From: an uncultured Nitrospiraceae bacterium
Lineage (GTDB): Bacteria > Nitrospirota > Thermodesulfovibrionia > Thermodesulfovibrionales > Dissulfurispiraceae
NCBI GenBank assembly: GCA_963705105.1
Contig: CAVPIW010000016.1
Span: 1-64,000, forward strand
Direction: 5' to 3'
DNA: 64,000 nt
Under the pieces are notes generated by a model, which worked only from the letters and a program-made list of their open reading frames with translations, made no database searches and was not told the DNA's origin. The translations under genes and the position numbers were made by a program. Each line of letters opens with the position of its first letter. Within the stretch, counting starts at the first letter, position 1. Below are positions 43,173 through 56,021 of the stretch, piece after piece.

Positions 43173-45266
<2,094 letters not shown>

Positions 45267-45333: not shown

Positions 45334-45777
45334 TCATGCACAGCCTGACTTCTCTATGATCTCCCCGACGATCGGGACGTACTCCGTCTTTCCCTCTATC
45401 CGCTTCGATGCTATTTTCACGATCAGAAACGTCGCGATGAGCAGACCGAAACCTGTCAGGGCCGAGACGATGTCCGGATCGCTGCCGGGGAAAAACCCGC
45501 TCAGATATTCCTTGCCCAGCACGGCGCCCACAATGAGGGCGAGGGCAGGGATGCCGTAGACCATGAGGGCTCCCTTGATGTAGGTATAGGGCCTGAAGAA
45601 CACCCGCACCGTATCGCCCACGGCCGCCCGCACATCGTTGACCGCCTCCACCTCAGCCCCGCCTGCAACGACCTTGCAGACCGACCCTCCCGGGCATTTC
45701 TCTCAGCCGCTCTGCTTCTGAATGGCGACAACGGCCATGGGGCCCTTCAGTTCCCTGACGATCCCGATCTCTTCCAC
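45334..45777 (-). CDS. rseC: RseC/MucC-family membrane protein with an in-frame UGA (candidate selenocysteine at codon 25)
   Basis: GTG 45777 gives MEEIGIVRELKGPMAVVAIQKQSG-UGA-EKCPGGSVCK...GDTV...YGIP plus two TM helices, in frame with ORF 45334-45651. Confidence 0.82.
45661..45681 (-). promoter_or_regulatory. Candidate bacterial SECIS hairpin
   Basis: GTCTGCAA-GGTCG-TTGCAGGC stem-loop; the G-first loop begins 29 nt after the UGA. Confidence 0.7.
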
Positions 45778-47614
45778 GATTGCTTTCTCTCTTACCTGTA
45801 AGGAAATTAAGAGTAAATTATACCATATAGAGTGAATCAAAGGGTTATAAGCGGGGGGGCCAGGGGAGCTGGGAGGGAAACGGGGCGTTCCTGCCCCATG
45901 ATCGCGGAGCGATGGCGCCGTGCTTCCCTTGCTTCGGCATGTCGTTATCAGTCATGAAGCCGTAAAATGCTCCCTATCGTCACATCCAACTCTTTGGTCC
46001 ATAAACATAAAAATGATCCCTCCGACCAGTGCTTGTGCTATAATGAGCCTAAGAGAACGGGCAGACGGGTATGTCGGCTAATTTTGTTAGCAGGTACAGC
46101 GAGCAATACTTGAGCAATGGCTAAGTCAGTTGGTGCAGGAAGGTGTGTTCATTGCCTTAAGGTGGTACAAGAACGAAATTGGGATCATGTCTTTCCCGAA
46201 TCCTGGTACCCTGAGACAACACCACCTGACATTGCAAAGTGGAAAGCCCCGAGCTGCATAAGATGTAACAGGGATTATGGTAAGATCGAACAGGATCTGC
46301 TAATAATATTTGGTCTATGTCTTGACCCCAATCATCCAGACACAAAAGGTATTGCCAAGAAAGCTCTTCGATCGATCAAACCAGAATATGGCCGAGATCG
46401 AAAAGATCGTCGGGCTCGGGAACGAAAGCTGGAGAAAACACTGCGAGAATTGACTATATTTCAGTCAATACCTGATCATGGCATTTTCCCGAACTTTGGG
46501 CCACTACAGCCACCGAGCACTGAAGGCTATATTGGCTTACCACTTCCGAAACACCAGATTGAACGGCTCGCCGAAAAAATTGTGAGAGGTGTTGCCTTTG
46601 TTGAAGATGGCCTTTATATAGATGAGCGATACAATTTGAGGTCATGTCAATAGGTGTGTAAAAAGCCATCAGGCGGCGAACCTTTCGACAGACTCTTCCT
46701 GCTCGACGGCAATGCCGTCTGTGAAGAGTTTCCCCTCGTGGACATCCCTCAGTAACCAATATCCCTTGAGCCTGCGGAATCTCTTCTCAGCGACTCCCAG
46801 CAACTTCCAGATCATCGCCGTCGCGTTTTGGACTTTCCTATACCGCTTCGCCGCATCCGTTCTCAAACGCACCGCGCTGAACGGTGACTCCACCACATTG
46901 GTCGTCCTGATATGCACCCAGTGCTCTTTCGGCAATGAATAGAACGTCACCATTCGCTCCCAATCTCTCCTCAGGGTCTCCGTCGCCTTCGGAAAATCCC
47001 TCCCATACCGGCTGATAAAGCTGTCCCTGAGCCTCTCACACTCTGCCTGCGTCTCTGCATAGGGGATCTTGGTGAGATACTCGCCTGCCTCGGCACGTAT
47101 CCTCTTGGGCATCGCATCCAGCACGTTGGTTATCTTATGGTTCCAACACCTCTGCTCCTTGCCCTCGGGATGAAGCTCTCCCAACGCTGACCATATCCCC
47201 AAATGACCATCGGCAACCGTCAATGTGCCCAGCTTCAGTCCCCGAGCGGTCAGATCCCTCAGGACCCCTGCCCAGGATTCCTTGCTCTCCCGATACCCGC
47301 TCTCGCAGGCCAGCAGGATCTTTTCCCCCGTAACCAACGCCCCGATGATCACCAGCAATGCTGCTTTGTCTTTCTCCAACCCGGCCTTCACGTATATCCC
47401 GTCCGCCCACTGATAGACGACCTCAAGCCCGGAAAGATCCCGAGCCTTCCACTCGTCGTATTCGCACTGCCATTTGCCCTTCAGCCGCTGGATCGACGAG
47501 GACGACAGCGGCGCCCTGTTGTTTTTCGCATTAAACCGACCTATATTTTCTGATTAAAGCAGCTTGTACATTGTCTCGACCTTTTGAGGAAGGGGGGGCG
47601 GGTGCCCCCCATCG

Positions 47615-48421
47615 TCAGATGATTTCCGAGGATGCAAGGCGGACATGCTCAGCGGAGACAAGCGGGCATTTCTCCGCAGCGGCAGCCATCAGCGCGCCTC
47701 TGGCAAGATTATTCGCCCGTCTGAGCAGGCCGCCGGAGCCATGGTGAATCGCCGTGACGGCCTGCTCGCTGAAAAGATTCTGGGTGCATCCCGCCACGAC
47801 GAGATGGTGCAGAAGGTAGGGGGCCATTTCATCACTTGTGAGAGATTCCATATGGCCTCGTGCAACCACCCGTGAGGCCAGAGGTCTGGACTGTCTGAAC
47901 ATGAGGTTGTCGATCAGGTTATTTTGCCCGGCCAGAATGATCGGCAGCAGCGGCTGTGAATCGCCATCAAACTGTGCCAGGGTATGAATCTCCGCAAAGA
48001 CATCCATCCTGATCAGGGAGGCCTCATCGACAATGAGCACGGGCCTCTGCTTTTTATGGACCAGTTCCAGGAGGCACGTGCGGATCATCTTCGTCAGAAC
48101 GGCCTTGGAGGAACTCCGGGATTCGATGTCCAGGGCAGCGCAGATCTGCCTGTACAGCTCGATGATCGATCCTGATGTTGCCGTCACAAAGAGGATTCTG
48201 TATTCCGAGGGATGAAGGGCCGATGAGGCGAACCGCAGGGCGGAGGATTTGCCGCTGCCCACATCCCCGGTGATCACGGCCACTGCCCCGAGGTTCACCG
48301 CGTACAGGAAGCGCTCCTTGGCGCCGATGAGTGCGACGCTTTTCATCAGGTCGTCGATCCTGAGATCCTGTGCAAAGGGCTCCTTTTGAAAGCCGAAGAA
48401 GACCCCGGTGAGGTCACTCAT
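47615..48421 (-). CDS. ExeA-like AAA ATPase (transposition helper)
   Basis: FGFQKEPF, GDVGSGKS Walker A, LIVDEA Walker B, ILAGQ. Confidence 0.9.
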   Translation of the reverse strand: MSDLTGVFFGFQKEPFAQDLRIDDLMKSVALIGAKERFLYAVNLGAVAVITGDVGSGKSSALRFASSALHPSEYRILFVTATSGSIIELYRQICAALDIESRSSSKAVLTKMIRTCLLELVHKKQRPVLIVDEASLIRMDVFAEIHTLAQFDGDSQPLLPIILAGQNNLIDNLMFRQSRPLASRVVARGHMESLTSDEMAPYLLHHLVVAGCTQNLFSEQAVTAIHHGSGGLLRRANNLARGALMAAAAEKCPLVSAEHVRLASSEII

Positions 48422-49721
48422 TGCCGGCCTCCGTATCCCTGCGACCAAACAGAGTGCCTCCCCGATATCGTTGGGGTGTAGTGAGGGGTTCGACCTCCAG
48501 GGCGTCCTTTCCCCTGCGGATGCGGCAGTTGACATGGACATCCACCGGGCGAGCGAATCCATACGTCATGCCTGCCAGAGTGATCTCCACCCGGGCGGGG
48601 TCGTGGTCATTGTACAGCAGGGTCACCTGCTTTCCGATCAGCGGCACCGGCGCTTCGTAGAGTCGTCCATTGAGGGAGACGGTCCTGTCTTTTGCCACGG
48701 TCCGTCGGGCAACGGTGCGGAAGTGATCTTCGAGGTCCTTCGGGGCAGGCCGCACACAGGCGATGTTGTCGGCAAAACGCTGCAGTGGTGTCTGCCCTGT
48801 GCTGCCGTGCGTCGTGTCATGGTACCGCCGTATCCACGAGCCGAGGGTCGCGTTGAGGTCATCCAACGTGGTGACGGTCTGAGCGCTGATGACTTGGTCC
48901 CGTATAGTGCGAAACCACCTCTCCACCTTCCCCTTGCCCTGGGGCTGGTACGGCTTGGCATGCAGTAAAACGATGCCCAGGGAAGCGCAGATATGCTCCA
49001 GGTGGTGACTCCGGAAGGCGGAGCCGTTATCCACGTAGAGCTTCCTTGGGATGCCGCGCATCAGAAGGGCTTTGCGAAAGGCATCCAGAAAGCACCCCAG
49101 CCGCTCGTGAAGATAAAACTCCGCATGAGGAATCAAACGGCTGTGGTCGTCCAGGAAGGCGATCAGATAGGTCTTTCTCTGTTTCCCCTCCACGGCAGCA
49201 GAGGGGCCGTGCATCACGTCGGCTTGCCACAGGGTGTTGGGTGCCTCCGCCTCGAACTTCCTCCTGTCCTGCGGAGCCGCCGACGGCTTGTCGAGCAATC
49301 CCTCGGCCTGCAGGAAGCGGTACACGGCGGAATAGGTGACCTTTGTCCCCGGCAGGATGATCTTCCTGTGCCGCGCCTGCTGCATCAGCACGGGCAAGGA
49401 GACCCCCGGCAGCTCTTTGCGGAGTGTCTTGAGGCCCATCGCCGTCTCCTCGTCGATCGCCCGCGGCTTGCCCTTGTCGGAGCGTCCCCGGGGATACAGC
49501 GACTCCAGCTTGTTGCCCGAGGCCTTGTACCGCGCAATCCACTGTTTGATCGCAGATTCGCTGATCCGGGTCCGCACGCTATGGGGAATCGTCCACTTCC
49601 GGGCGCACTTGTCCTTCATCAGCCTGTCGGTCTCTCCCCTGTCCAGCGTCCTGCCGTCTACAAAGTCGGCGATCACCCCAAACCGAAACACCGCGATCCG
49701 TTTTTGCTTGTCTTCGTCCAC
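48414..49721 (-). CDS. DDE transposase (rve core, Mu-like C-terminus)
   Basis: WQADVMHG, LDDHSR, LYVDNGSAF, GKVERWF. Confidence 0.93.
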   Translation of the reverse strand: MDEDKQKRIAVFRFGVIADFVDGRTLDRGETDRLMKDKCARKWTIPHSVRTRISESAIKQWIARYKASGNKLESLYPRGRSDKGKPRAIDEETAMGLKTLRKELPGVSLPVLMQQARHRKIILPGTKVTYSAVYRFLQAEGLLDKPSAAPQDRRKFEAEAPNTLWQADVMHGPSAAVEGKQRKTYLIAFLDDHSRLIPHAEFYLHERLGCFLDAFRKALLMRGIPRKLYVDNGSAFRSHHLEHICASLGIVLLHAKPYQPQGKGKVERWFRTIRDQVISAQTVTTLDDLNATLGSWIRRYHDTTHGSTGQTPLQRFADNIACVRPAPKDLEDHFRTVARRTVAKDRTVSLNGRLYEAPVPLIGKQVTLLYNDHDPARVEITLAGMTYGFARPVDVHVNCRIRRGKDALEVEPLTTPQRYRGGTLFGRRDTEAGNE

Positions 49722-49825
49722 TACAAACCTCCTTCATCGTGTGATGAAAGAGCGTACACCAGCGACCATCCCCAGCGTAATGGCACAGTTCGGTGGACTG
49801 CCTCCTCGTCACCCCCCTGTCGGCA

Positions 49826-50281
49826 TTAAAGCAGCCTCTTGACGGGGACCTTGCCGCGCTGCAGCACCTCATGAAAGCCCTCAAGAAGATCACCGGAGAA
49901 GGACAGACCGAGGGACGTCGTGATGTTTCTGCCCAGAGCCCGTAGCCAGTGCCCCTGCCTCTGCCGGCTGAACTCCCGGCTCCCCCATACGCCCTTTGTG
50001 ATCCGATGACACAAACGGGCAAAGATGATCCGTATCGGCACATGGTGACGGGGCCAGTAGCCAAAAGGACGAAGTCTGTAGAGGCAGCCGCACTCGGCAC
50101 AGACGAACCGCTTCAGGACAAGGGCCGTGCCGTATCCGTCGAAGTGGGCATCGACGTACCCATGACTCCAGATCCTGCTGCTCCCACACCCCTCCCGCAG
50201 ACACGCCGACGGCCGGGGGAATGCATAGTCGCGGCCACGTTCAAAGAGCTCCTTGATACTTCCTGTGAAAAACAGTAACAA
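49826..50281 (-). CDS. IS-associated Cys-rich zinc-ribbon protein (DUF6431-like)
   Basis: C..C...HGY...RFVCAEC; AGGAGG RBS before TTG 50281. Confidence 0.7.
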   Translation of the reverse strand: MLLFFTGSIKELFERGRDYAFPRPSACLREGCGSSRIWSHGYVDAHFDGYGTALVLKRFVCAECGCLYRLRPFGYWPRHHVPIRIIFARLCHRITKGVWGSREFSRQRQGHWLRALGRNITTSLGLSFSGDLLEGFHEVLQRGKVPVKRLL

Positions 50282-51245
50282 TACAATCCTCCTTGGGCCT
50301 GAAGCGATGAAGGGAGCGCCAGAACTCACTGCTCGTCGCTTTGGGCCTTTGTCGTAATGGGACATCACGGAGGATAGTTTAATCCGAATGACAGGATGTT
50401 TGGGTCAGAAGATTGTGAAGAATACAGCGGCTTTTAGGTCAGCTTAATGAGGGAACTAACACGCCCCTTCTCCCAATAACCCCCGAAGCGCTAAATCAAA
50501 ATCCCCCTGCGCCAGTCCGTGGAGATACAATTCCGGCAGTAACTGCCCCACTTCTTTTGACCGACGTATGAATAACGGCAGGACCTTGCTCTCAAATCGC
50601 TCCTCCGCTCCCCGCACACGGGGCCGTCGGACCGTGATCGTCCCGTTCATCAGCGTGAACTTCTTCCCCTTCCCGTGTCCGTTCCAATACCCCCGCTTGC
50701 TATCCACCTTCTTGATCCTCTCGGATTTCTTCCTCCCTAAAAAGATCTCGACTTCCTCTTCCAGTATGTCTTGAATGTATTCCTGGACTCTCTGCCGAAC
50801 TATCCCTTCCAATGCCTCGTACGTCGCCCTTGACGGCTCAACTGCCTCGGTGATACTCTTGTCCATGGTGGTGTCTCCTTTCTCTTTGTTGATTCCAGGT
50901 CAACTGATTAAGGATACACCGCCTTCTCACTCATTTACACACTTTTTGATCTTACCTCTACAATTTTGAGATTTATGTATTAGAGGATGCAGGAGCGACG
51001 CCGGTCATTGAACTGATTGAAAAGTATGGCGTCCAACTGCATCGTGGACCTGGTCTGGTCGTTCGGCGTGCAGTCATTCCAGAAGACCGCCAGTCTGGTC
51101 TATACGCAGTCGAAATATGGGGGCGAGCAAAGCTCTATGCGGCTGTCACGCCGAAGTCGCTTGATGACATCAATGACTAAACTGTTAATCACTGGCTCGC
51201 GCAGCCGCTGGCGCTAGCGCACGGCCGTAACCGCTGAGAGGGAAA

Positions 51246-54650: not shown

Positions 54651-56021
54651 GAGGTAAGATCAAAAAGTGTGTAAATGAGTGAGAAGGCGGTGTATCCTTA
54701 ATCAGTTGACCTGGAATCAACAAAGAGAAAGGAGACACCACCATGGACAAGAGTATCACCGAGGCAGTTGAGCCGTCAAGGGCGACGTACGAGGCATTGG
54801 AAGGGATAGTTCGGCAGAGAGTCCAGGAATACATTCAAGACATACTGGAAGAGGAAGTCGAGATCTTTTTAGGGAGGAAGAAATCCGAGAGGATCAAGAA
54901 GGTGGATAGCAAGCGGGGGTATTGGAACGGACACGGGAAGGGGAAGAAGTTCACGCTGATGAACGGGACGATCACGGTCCGACGGCCCCGTGTGCGGGGA
55001 GCGGAGGAGCGATTTGAGAGCAAGGTCCTGCCGTTATTCATACGTCGGTCAAAAGAAGTGGGGCAGTTACTGCCGGAATTGTATCTCCACGGACTGGCGC
55101 AGGGGGATTTTGATTTAGCGCTTCGGGGGTTATTGGGAGAAGGGGCGCCGCTGTCGTCCTCGTCGATCCAGCGGCTGAAGGGCAAATGGCAGTGCGAATA
55201 CGACGAGTGGAAGGCTCGGGATCTTTCCGGGCTTGAGGTCGTCTATCAGTGGGCGGACGGGATATACGTGAAGGCCGGGTTGGAGAAAGACAAAGCAGCA
55301 TTGCTGGTGATCATCGGGGCGTTGGTTACGGGGGAAAAGATCCTGCTGGCCTGCGAGAGCGGGTATCGGGAGAGCAAGGAATCCTGGGCAGGGGTCCTGA
55401 GGGATCTGACCGCTCGGGGACTGAAGCTGGGCACATTGACGGTTGCCGATGGTCATTTGGGGATATGGTCAGCGTTGGGAGAGCTTCATCCCGAGGGCAA
55501 GGAGCAGAGGTGTTGGAACCATAAGATAACCAACGTGCTGGATGCGATGCCCAAGAGGATACGTGCCGAGGCAGGCGAGTATCTCACCAAGATCCCCTAT
55601 GCAGAGACGCAGGCAGAGTGTGAGAGGCTCAGGGACAGCTTTATCAGCCGGTATGGGAGGGATTTTCCGAAGGCGACGGAGACCCTGAGGAGAGATTGGG
55701 AGCGAATGGTGACGTTCTATTCATTGCCGAAAGAGCACTGGGTGCATATCAGGACGACCAATGTGGTGGAGTCACCGTTCAGCGCGGTGCGTTTGAGAAC
55801 GGATGCGGCGAAGCGGTATAGGAAAGTCCAAAACGCGACGGCGATGATCTGGAAGTTGCTGGGAGTCGCTGAGAAGAGATTCCGCAGGCTCAAGGGATAT
55901 TGGTTACTGAGGGATGTCCACGAGGGGAAACTCTTCACAGACGGCATTGCCGTCGAGCAGGAAGAGTCTGTCGAAAGGTTCGCCGCCTGATGGCTTTTTA
56001 CACACCTATTGACATGACCTC
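54651..56021 (+). mobile_element. IS256-family element copy A (1371 bp)
   Basis: Inverted repeats GAGGTAAGATCAAAAAGTGTGTAAA / TTTACACACCTATTGACATGACCTC; 8-bp TSD ATTGGATC. Confidence 0.97.
54743..55990 (+). CDS. IS256-family transposase
   Basis: WADGIY, VADG, QRCWNHK, RTTNVVES; 415 aa. Confidence 0.95.
   Translation: MDKSITEAVEPSRATYEALEGIVRQRVQEYIQDILEEEVEIFLGRKKSERIKKVDSKRGYWNGHGKGKKFTLMNGTITVRRPRVRGAEERFESKVLPLFIRRSKEVGQLLPELYLHGLAQGDFDLALRGLLGEGAPLSSSSIQRLKGKWQCEYDEWKARDLSGLEVVYQWADGIYVKAGLEKDKAALLVIIGALVTGEKILLACESGYRESKESWAGVLRDLTARGLKLGTLTVADGHLGIWSALGELHPEGKEQRCWNHKITNVLDAMPKRIRAEAGEYLTKIPYAETQAECERLRDSFISRYGRDFPKATETLRRDWERMVTFYSLPKEHWVHIRTTNVVESPFSAVRLRTDAAKRYRKVQNATAMIWKLLGVAEKRFRRLKGYWLLRDVHEGKLFTDGIAVEQEESVERFAA

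Follow-up and report, generated by a model that had tools for sequence, protein, structure and literature searches.

A candidate selenocysteine codon at the first triad cysteine of rseC in an uncultured Dissulfurispiraceae bacterium

A 64,000-nucleotide stretch of contig CAVPIW010000016.1 (assembly GCA_963705105.1), from an uncultured Nitrospiraceae bacterium placed by GTDB in the family Dissulfurispiraceae, contains an rseC gene that is interrupted by an in-frame TGA. We refer to the whole stretch as the window. Does this codon end the gene, or is it read as selenocysteine (Sec)? A preliminary description of the locus had proposed a Sec-containing RseC, and this proposal is supported by the Sec machinery of the genome, by the alignment of the codon with an invariant cysteine, and by the recurrence of the codon, with hairpins, in a second lineage. 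We consider it highly probable that rseC is intact, with UGA at codon 25 decoded as Sec in a U-x2-C-x5-C triad that probably binds an iron-sulfur (Fe-S) cluster, in a protein that is membrane-anchored and likely assists the Rnf complex.

The in-frame UGA, its hairpin and the decoding machinery

The rseC frame contains a single internal TGA, in the context S-G-U-E-K-C-P-G-G-S-V-C (coordinates of all features are given in Table 1). Residues 7–137 match PF04246 (RseC_MucC) over model positions 1–128 of 130 (E 1e-24; 87 bits against a gathering cut-off of 24.4). The triad of the window protein is U25, C28, and C34, and these are three invariant columns in a 54-row alignment when U is counted as C. 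The match and the alignment bear out the earlier placement of the TGA, at 45705–45703, at the first triad Cys of an RseC-like frame. Gene callers report only the final 105 residues, and the database cluster of the protein holds six 105-residue entries and one 73-residue entry. The TGA could be a true stop, leaving a pseudogene or only a 105-residue product that begins at an internal GTG at 45651; public collections show only the 105-residue form for this species.

The TGA at codon 25 is no assembly error. Eight of the 24 listed sequencing runs were compared, all as assembled contigs and with the caveat that the best-covering run may be the source sample, and contigs from six of them (six studies) carry the codon with no listed difference, so that the base check proposed for 45703 came out in favor of TGA; one further run falls short of the codon. 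Contigs from an RNA run (X18) cover most of rseC and end 5 bases short of the UGA, and as contigs they reveal neither strand nor expression level. Three DNA runs contain a strain ~96% identical to the window. In one of these (X3), the strain has 13 synonymous and two non-synonymous differences in rseC, all 3' of the UGA, a ratio that fits the expectation for a working gene. The section that holds the UGA and the hairpin (45632–45777) is free of differences in the ~96% strain, which has a chance of ~0.001 if changes are spread evenly. Constraint or a recent sweep could account for this, and either suffices.

The hairpin behind the UGA was found as first described, an 8-bp stem with a GGTCG loop starting 29 nt after the UGA. 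It reads GTCTGCAA-GGTCG-TTGCAGGC, and its eight pairs comprise seven Watson-Crick pairs and one G-U pair. The consensus for the bacterial selenocysteine insertion sequence (SECIS), as given in the available portion of a 2026 review (PMC13188914), is a loop of 3–9 nt, a stem of 4–16 bp, a G in the first two loop positions, a distance of 16–37 nt from the UGA, and a folding energy of −7.5 kcal/mol or lower. The window hairpin fits that consensus with its 5-nt GGUCG loop, 8 bp, and 29 nt, and the 36-nt stretch that holds it folds at −17 kcal/mol, a second small stem included. Of 8634 Cys codons in the genome's long frames, 64 (0.7%) are followed by a stem of 8 bp or longer with such a loop, and an equally good hairpin appears in 226 of 20,000 synonymous recodings (1.1%) of the same 22 residues. 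Against shuffled sequences the z score is −1.4 to −2.4, modest alone, and an Rfam search gave zero matches at E values up to 10.

The window genome is 99% complete and contains all four of selA, selB, selC, and selD, whose presence the preliminary description had left to be confirmed: selA (E 6e-149), the C-terminal wing domain of SelB within a frame of 657 codons, a tRNA-Sec with a UCA anticodon (69 bits, ending in GCCA), and a selD with an in-frame TGA of its own. A coding-potential scan returned 760 loose UGA candidates. Eleven UGA-at-Cys genes were chosen by paralogues or motif, and with stems of at least 4 pairs counted, a short stem whose loop opens with G-U or G-G follows 17–24 nt downstream in 10 of the 11. 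The rseC hairpin loop fits this pattern. From motifs, we take some of the candidates to be UGA-at-Cys genes that resemble FdhA, MvhD, the NiFe hydrogenase large subunit, MsrA, DsbA/DsbG, a thioredoxin-like protein, and rhodaneses. SelB would very probably bind the rseC hairpin and deliver Sec-tRNA(UCA), giving a full 147-residue protein with Sec25.

A special tRNA, for instance the selC* tRNA-Cys(UCA) of some deltaproteobacteria, might instead insert Cys or a different residue at the UGA, but this is exceedingly improbable. Such tRNAs with a UCA anticodon are described in the accessible part of PMC5389517, and the genome holds a tRNA-Sec-like tRNA-Cys (contig C10, 176596–176691), but this tRNA has a GCA anticodon, and the sole UCA tRNA found scores as tRNA-Sec. 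There is one selA and one SelB wing domain, and the selD is of the Sec type. The end codon of rseC is itself TGA and lies near the ends of its relatives, which argues that UGA is not generally reassigned.

Recurrence, selection and history of the codon

NCBI lists the rseC homologues as Nitrospirota, and their class is probably Thermodesulfovibrionia. Of 390 genomes of the class, 320 have RseC, and a TGA pattern matched 68 genomes, nine of which have an in-frame TGA in rseC: the window's genome and eight genomes of a genus in another family (genus g25, family f2). The remaining matches, read by eye, are out-of-frame TGT-GA or unrelated. The pattern sees the first Cys position only, and 207 weaker RseC matches stay outside the listing. 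Eight of the 13 g25 genomes thus have TGA at the same codon, in a protein 42% identical to that of the window. Reading 79 distinct rseC genes in full gave nine with TGA and 70 with TGY at this codon. Across 401 genomes of the phylum, the pattern, which is tuned to this class, found no TGA RseC outside the two lineages. A protein scan of metagenome contigs gave zero confirmed relatives, and scans with the TGA motif gave 46 matches in metagenome contigs and one in genome contigs, none of them RseC. Stops (TGA or other) flagged in genomes G004 and G008 and in 11 further relatives proved to be terminal stops or to lie past the aligned gene. Some class genomes (e.g., G054, G120, and G172) have two or three RseC-like matches, so RseC paralogues exist.

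The Sec machinery is also present in g25, with selA in 13/13 genomes, selB in 12/13 (the genome with no selB match is 87% complete), and tRNA-Sec(UCA) in 5/5 tested. The g25 triad spacing is x4 rather than x5. Among 70 database matches of the g25 protein, 24 are 102–107 residues long, which is suggestive only; short RseC entries also turn up in clusters with Cys members.

Aligned TGA/Cys pairs, which the preliminary description had proposed to look for, were present: the TGA faces an invariant Cys, recurs in eight genomes of another family, and is followed by a hairpin in each. The same description had counted it against Sec if all close homologues had Cys and no hairpin. The near kin do all have Cys, yet the eight g25 genomes have both TGA and hairpin. 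The g25 hairpin differs in sequence from that of the window (CACCTG-CGTGA-CAGGTG), and its loop starts 23 nt past the UGA. A stem of at least 5 pairs with a G-G or G-U loop start at 16–37 nt occurs in 9/9 TGA genes versus 11/70 Cys genes, and with at least 6 pairs the same rule picks out 8/9 versus 6/70. This contrast is descriptive only because the 79 rows are kin and not independent, and the strict stem rule was fixed after the other UGA genes of the window genome had been viewed.

Selection on the g25 genes was compared across the codon and the hairpin. Synonymous divergence (pS) among the eight TGA genes is 0.04 in the seven hairpin codons versus 0.51 upstream and 0.49 downstream, and four Cys sister genes have a pS of 0.44 in the same hairpin codons. 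Synonymous sites are nearly frozen in the hairpin of the TGA genes only. The ratio of non-synonymous to synonymous divergence (pN/pS) in the eight TGA genes is 0.18 before the UGA and 0.20 after it. A true stop would need one substitution from TGY and would agree with the Cys codons of all the nearest loci. Against it, a second lineage underwent the same codon change and kept it across eight species, with pN/pS near 0.2 on both sides; the short product would have no triad residue at all, yet Cys28 and Cys34 are retained in 9/9 TGA genes; the frozen hairpin sites are confined to TGA genes; and genomes that lose RseC tend to be without Rnf, whereas the TGA genomes retain Rnf. We regard a stop at codon 25 as very improbable.

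Several observations weigh against decoding as Sec or limit its reach. Codon 25 is TGC or TGT in 29/29 of the nearest loci, so that support for Sec comes from the distant, independent lineage and from same-species strains. No in-frame TGA turned up in the 53 other RseC genomes of the window's family, whether by the pattern or among the loci read, and the window's TGA lineage consists of one species-level genome and its strains. The Sec form is rare (9/79 genes; 9 of ~320 class genomes with RseC, by the first-Cys pattern), and most Sec-using relatives retain Cys at codon 25, so Sec is not required for the function of the RseC family. A loose published SECIS model, used in a permissive scan, fits many Cys genes and gives no separation from the TGA genes. 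Changes in the g25 hairpin are one-sided, with no two-sided compensatory change found. Part of the g25 stem (4–5 pairs) is present in a Cys gene outside the TGA clade (L153), so the protein sequence by itself can account for some of the hairpin.

When the 79 proteins were placed in a tree with codon 25 masked, three state changes were needed, and a single change was recovered in 0% of bootstrap trees. In this tree, the protein of the window falls within the Cys proteins of its family, and the subclade of g25 TGA genes also takes in one Cys gene, from genome G303, with TGT at the codon, a weakened stem, and intact selA, selB, and selC. A single clade of all TGA rows plus G303 was rejected (approximately unbiased test, P = 0.0003), G303 having been joined to the constrained clade after the tree had been seen. 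Most simply, Cys changed to Sec twice inside a single bacterial order and went back at least once. A database protein in the Cys form that is 89% identical to the g25 form (P0039) may be another reversion.

The triad as a probable cluster site and a likely link to Rnf

What would selenium do at this position? The AlphaFold2 model of the window protein has a small beta domain and two long helices (mean predicted local distance difference test score [pLDDT] 77). A fold search with the model gave no match at E 0.001 and only weak OB-fold-like matches at E 0.02 or worse, and no sequence relative was found among solved structures. Neither the model nor the fold search shows a thioredoxin fold around the UxxC. 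In Escherichia coli RseC, the triad is C26/C29/C35, activity disappears when two of these residues are changed, and an oxygen-sensitive cluster that gives a [4Fe-4S]-like spectrum can be loaded into the N-terminal domain; the two termini of the protein lie in the cytoplasm, and it interacts with two members of the Rnf-type complex, RsxB and RsxD (PMC11729352). A co-linear NCBIfam match (PRK10862; 24 bits against an equivalog cut-off of 184) is offset by one residue, so U25 corresponds to E. coli C26. The window protein shares with E. coli RseC, a component of the SoxR-reducing system (PF04246; PRK10862; PMC11729352), a predicted two-helix membrane anchor whose ends are cytoplasmic, the triad in register, and a host with Rnf/Rsx and ApbE. 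It differs in that its first triad residue is encoded by UGA, SoxR was found in 0/5 TGA genomes tested, and its gene precedes an EF-G-like gene and is not within an rpoE operon.

The preliminary description had likened the motif to the UxxC redox motif of other selenoproteins. This analogy is probably wrong, since an oxygen-sensitive Fe-S cluster could be reconstituted on the E. coli triad (PMC11729352), which makes Sec more likely a cluster ligand than part of a thioredoxin-type UxxC. By analogy with E. coli, the ligands of a labile Fe-S cluster are rather likely Sec25, Cys28, and Cys34, on the cytoplasmic face of the two-helix anchor. It is unlikely, in our view, that Sec is inserted and acts as a selenol/thiol redox switch, through a Se-S bond with Cys28 or Cys34, rather than as a metal ligand. 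UxxC is the commonest motif in the selenoprotein catalogue, as far as the available portion of PMC13188914 goes, and a fourth ligand of the cluster is not evident; the lack of a thioredoxin fold in the model, the invariance of all three triad positions, and the cluster acquired by the E. coli N-terminal domain (PMC11729352) argue for a ligand instead.

The proposed Rnf connection rests on co-occurrence and on genetics in other hosts. RnfC and ApbE are present in 5/5 RseC genomes tested, and RnfC is absent in 5/5 genomes that lack RseC. The window genome has a full rnfCDGEAB-like gene run, on another contig than rseC. In one family of 57 genomes (f12), 31 have RseC and RnfC, 19 have neither, two have RseC only, and five have RnfC only, so that 50/57 agree. 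Clostridium ljungdahlii without rseC cannot grow autotrophically and transcribes rnf less, according to the abstract of PMC9124969. That host likewise contains Rnf, and its phenotype is tied to Rnf and not to SoxR; as described there, the C. ljungdahlii system differs from ours in that Sec is not mentioned in the abstract, and in our genome rseC and rnf are on different contigs. The E. coli and C. ljungdahlii data, the co-occurrence with RnfC, and the SoxR count together make Sec25, in our reading, a likely ligand of an Fe-S cluster in a protein that assists Rnf. RseC would probably support the function or expression of RnfCDGEAB and not the reduction of SoxR.

These functional assignments have evidence against them as well. 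The model is least confident around the triad (pLDDT 50–54), cluster binding was shown for a refolded E. coli fragment only and single Cys changes leave activity (PMC11729352), and the RseC-RnfC pairing is broken in 7/57 genomes of family f12.

More tentatively, RseC may be an Fe-S carrier or maturation factor of Rnf, a counterpart of NqrM for Nqr, in which the first ligand was swapped to selenium in two independent events, each with its own new SECIS formed out of coding sequence and subsequently lost. The parallel with NqrM would be one of analogy, drawn from a partial text of PMC12174285. If the carrier or maturation reading holds, a single genus with Sec, Cys, and revertant alleles would offer a natural experiment on the birth of a selenoprotein, and the same alleles would test the effect of a selenolate ligand on a labile cluster.

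Novelty, genomic context and other candidates

RseC shares features with selenoproteins that are already catalogued. In the available portion of PMC13188914, those with an in-frame SECIS and Fe-S or metal sites (MvhD/VhuD, HdrA, HgcB, and the Csac_0668-type 2Fe-2S protein) also have UGA at a conserved Cys, and bacterial selenoproteins have a hairpin 16–37 nt downstream with G at the loop start, selABCD, and Cys orthologues. Unlike those, the Sec form of RseC is young and patchily distributed, having arisen twice and reverted at least once. RseC, MucC, and PF04246 are not among the 119 families and subfamilies in Table 1 of that review, within the portion available. RseC is not named in the main texts of BSepDB, deep-Sep, and SelCysML or in four deep-Sep supplements; the BSepDB family table was outside this search and may bear on novelty. 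Literature searches combining RseC or PF04246 with selenoprotein or selenocysteine returned nothing on a Sec RseC, as judged from listings and with subscription papers outside their scope, and NCBIfam (June 2026) has no Sec-type model matching the window protein. The Sec RseC is very likely a new selenoprotein form of a known family, with a narrow range and a known decoding mechanism.

RseC would then join the list of bacterial selenoproteins, and a systematic truncation in databases, where TGA genes stand as 102–105-residue proteins with no Cys motif, would be corrected. A Cys-to-Sec conversion would be caught early and in two separate cases at the same codon. With sister Cys alleles and a revertant alongside, the way in which a SECIS arises within a coding sequence becomes open to test. 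With selenium placed here, the first triad residue would stand out as the chemically special site of a widespread protein, and RseC would gain a built-in spectroscopic label.

Table 1. Positions in the window of rseC, its predicted elements, and the conserved neighboring gene
Feature	Position	Strand	Description
rseC coding sequence	45334..45777	−	147 residues from GTG, reading through the internal UGA
In-frame TGA, predicted Sec	45703..45705	−	Codon 25, first position of the C-x2-C-x5-C triad
Cys28 codon	45694..45696	−	Second triad residue; invariant in the 54-row alignment
Cys34 codon	45676..45678	−	Third triad residue; within the 5' arm of the hairpin
Predicted bacterial SECIS hairpin	45661..45681	−	8-bp stem; GGUCG loop at 45673–45669, starting 29 nt past the UGA
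Two long hydrophobic helices, predicted membrane hairpin	45397..45585	−	Residues 65–95 and 101–127; AlphaFold2 model
EF-G-like gene, downstream	43173..45266	−	Named from its sequence; conserved neighbor of rseC

Among 67 homologue loci of more than 2 kb, rseC is followed by the EF-G (elongation factor G)-like gene in 62, and the eight other TGA loci are all among these. In genomes G018 and G286, the two genes share one open frame of ~860 codons interrupted by a single stop. A simple scan at rseC found neither a sigma-70 promoter nor a terminator. A transposase-like gene of 415 amino acids is located at 54743–55990, and a second copy (46669–50866), just upstream of rseC, is interrupted by an integrase and ATPase pair (47615–49721). 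The strain in the reads departs from the window sequence at ~45855, so the region upstream of rseC is variable.

Further UGA-at-Cys candidates with hairpins were recorded in the window genome at C5:161929(+), C12:54725(+), C5:133695(−), C10:51332(−), C7:173498(−), C5:313861(−), C6:758464(+), C6:852929(−), C6:833469(+), C12:101917(+), C14:198108(+), C6:886025(+), C6:641879(+), and C6:152544(−), given as contig and position. By motif, these 14 are presumably two FdhA, one MvhD, one NiFe large subunit, one MsrA, two DsbA/G, one thioredoxin-like protein, three rhodaneses, one arsenite methyltransferase-like protein, and two YeeE. A NuoB-like frame with an in-frame TGA (FGLA*CAIEMM) followed by a 6-bp hairpin (C5:32942, −) would be another possible case, after rseC, of Sec at an Fe-S ligand. 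Further TGA candidates, in frame within coding-like stretches and with no family name, are located at C14:183516(−), C12:137087(+), C17:57937(−), C12:315839(−), and C7:214910(−), the first four with hairpins.

The tRNA-Sec-like tRNA-Cys on contig C10 (− strand; also L004:1497–1592) is 96 nt long and scores 56 bits on the tRNA-Sec model. It has an 8-bp acceptor, a 5-bp T stem, and a long variable arm, ends in UCCA, and overlaps the upstream region of a 430-residue gene near a rhodanese-like gene. It probably belongs to the selC* tRNA-Cys class reported for Nitrospirae, as described in the accessible part of PMC5389517. ARAGORN identified a 90-nt tRNA with a GTC anticodon (C6:631301–631390, −), long for tRNA-Asp, that could be an allo-tRNA-like element. 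Contig C4 has 23 tRNA genes packed in ~2.2 kb. Contig C3 is 9 kb long with 67% GC and five tRNA genes, and may be foreign to the bin.
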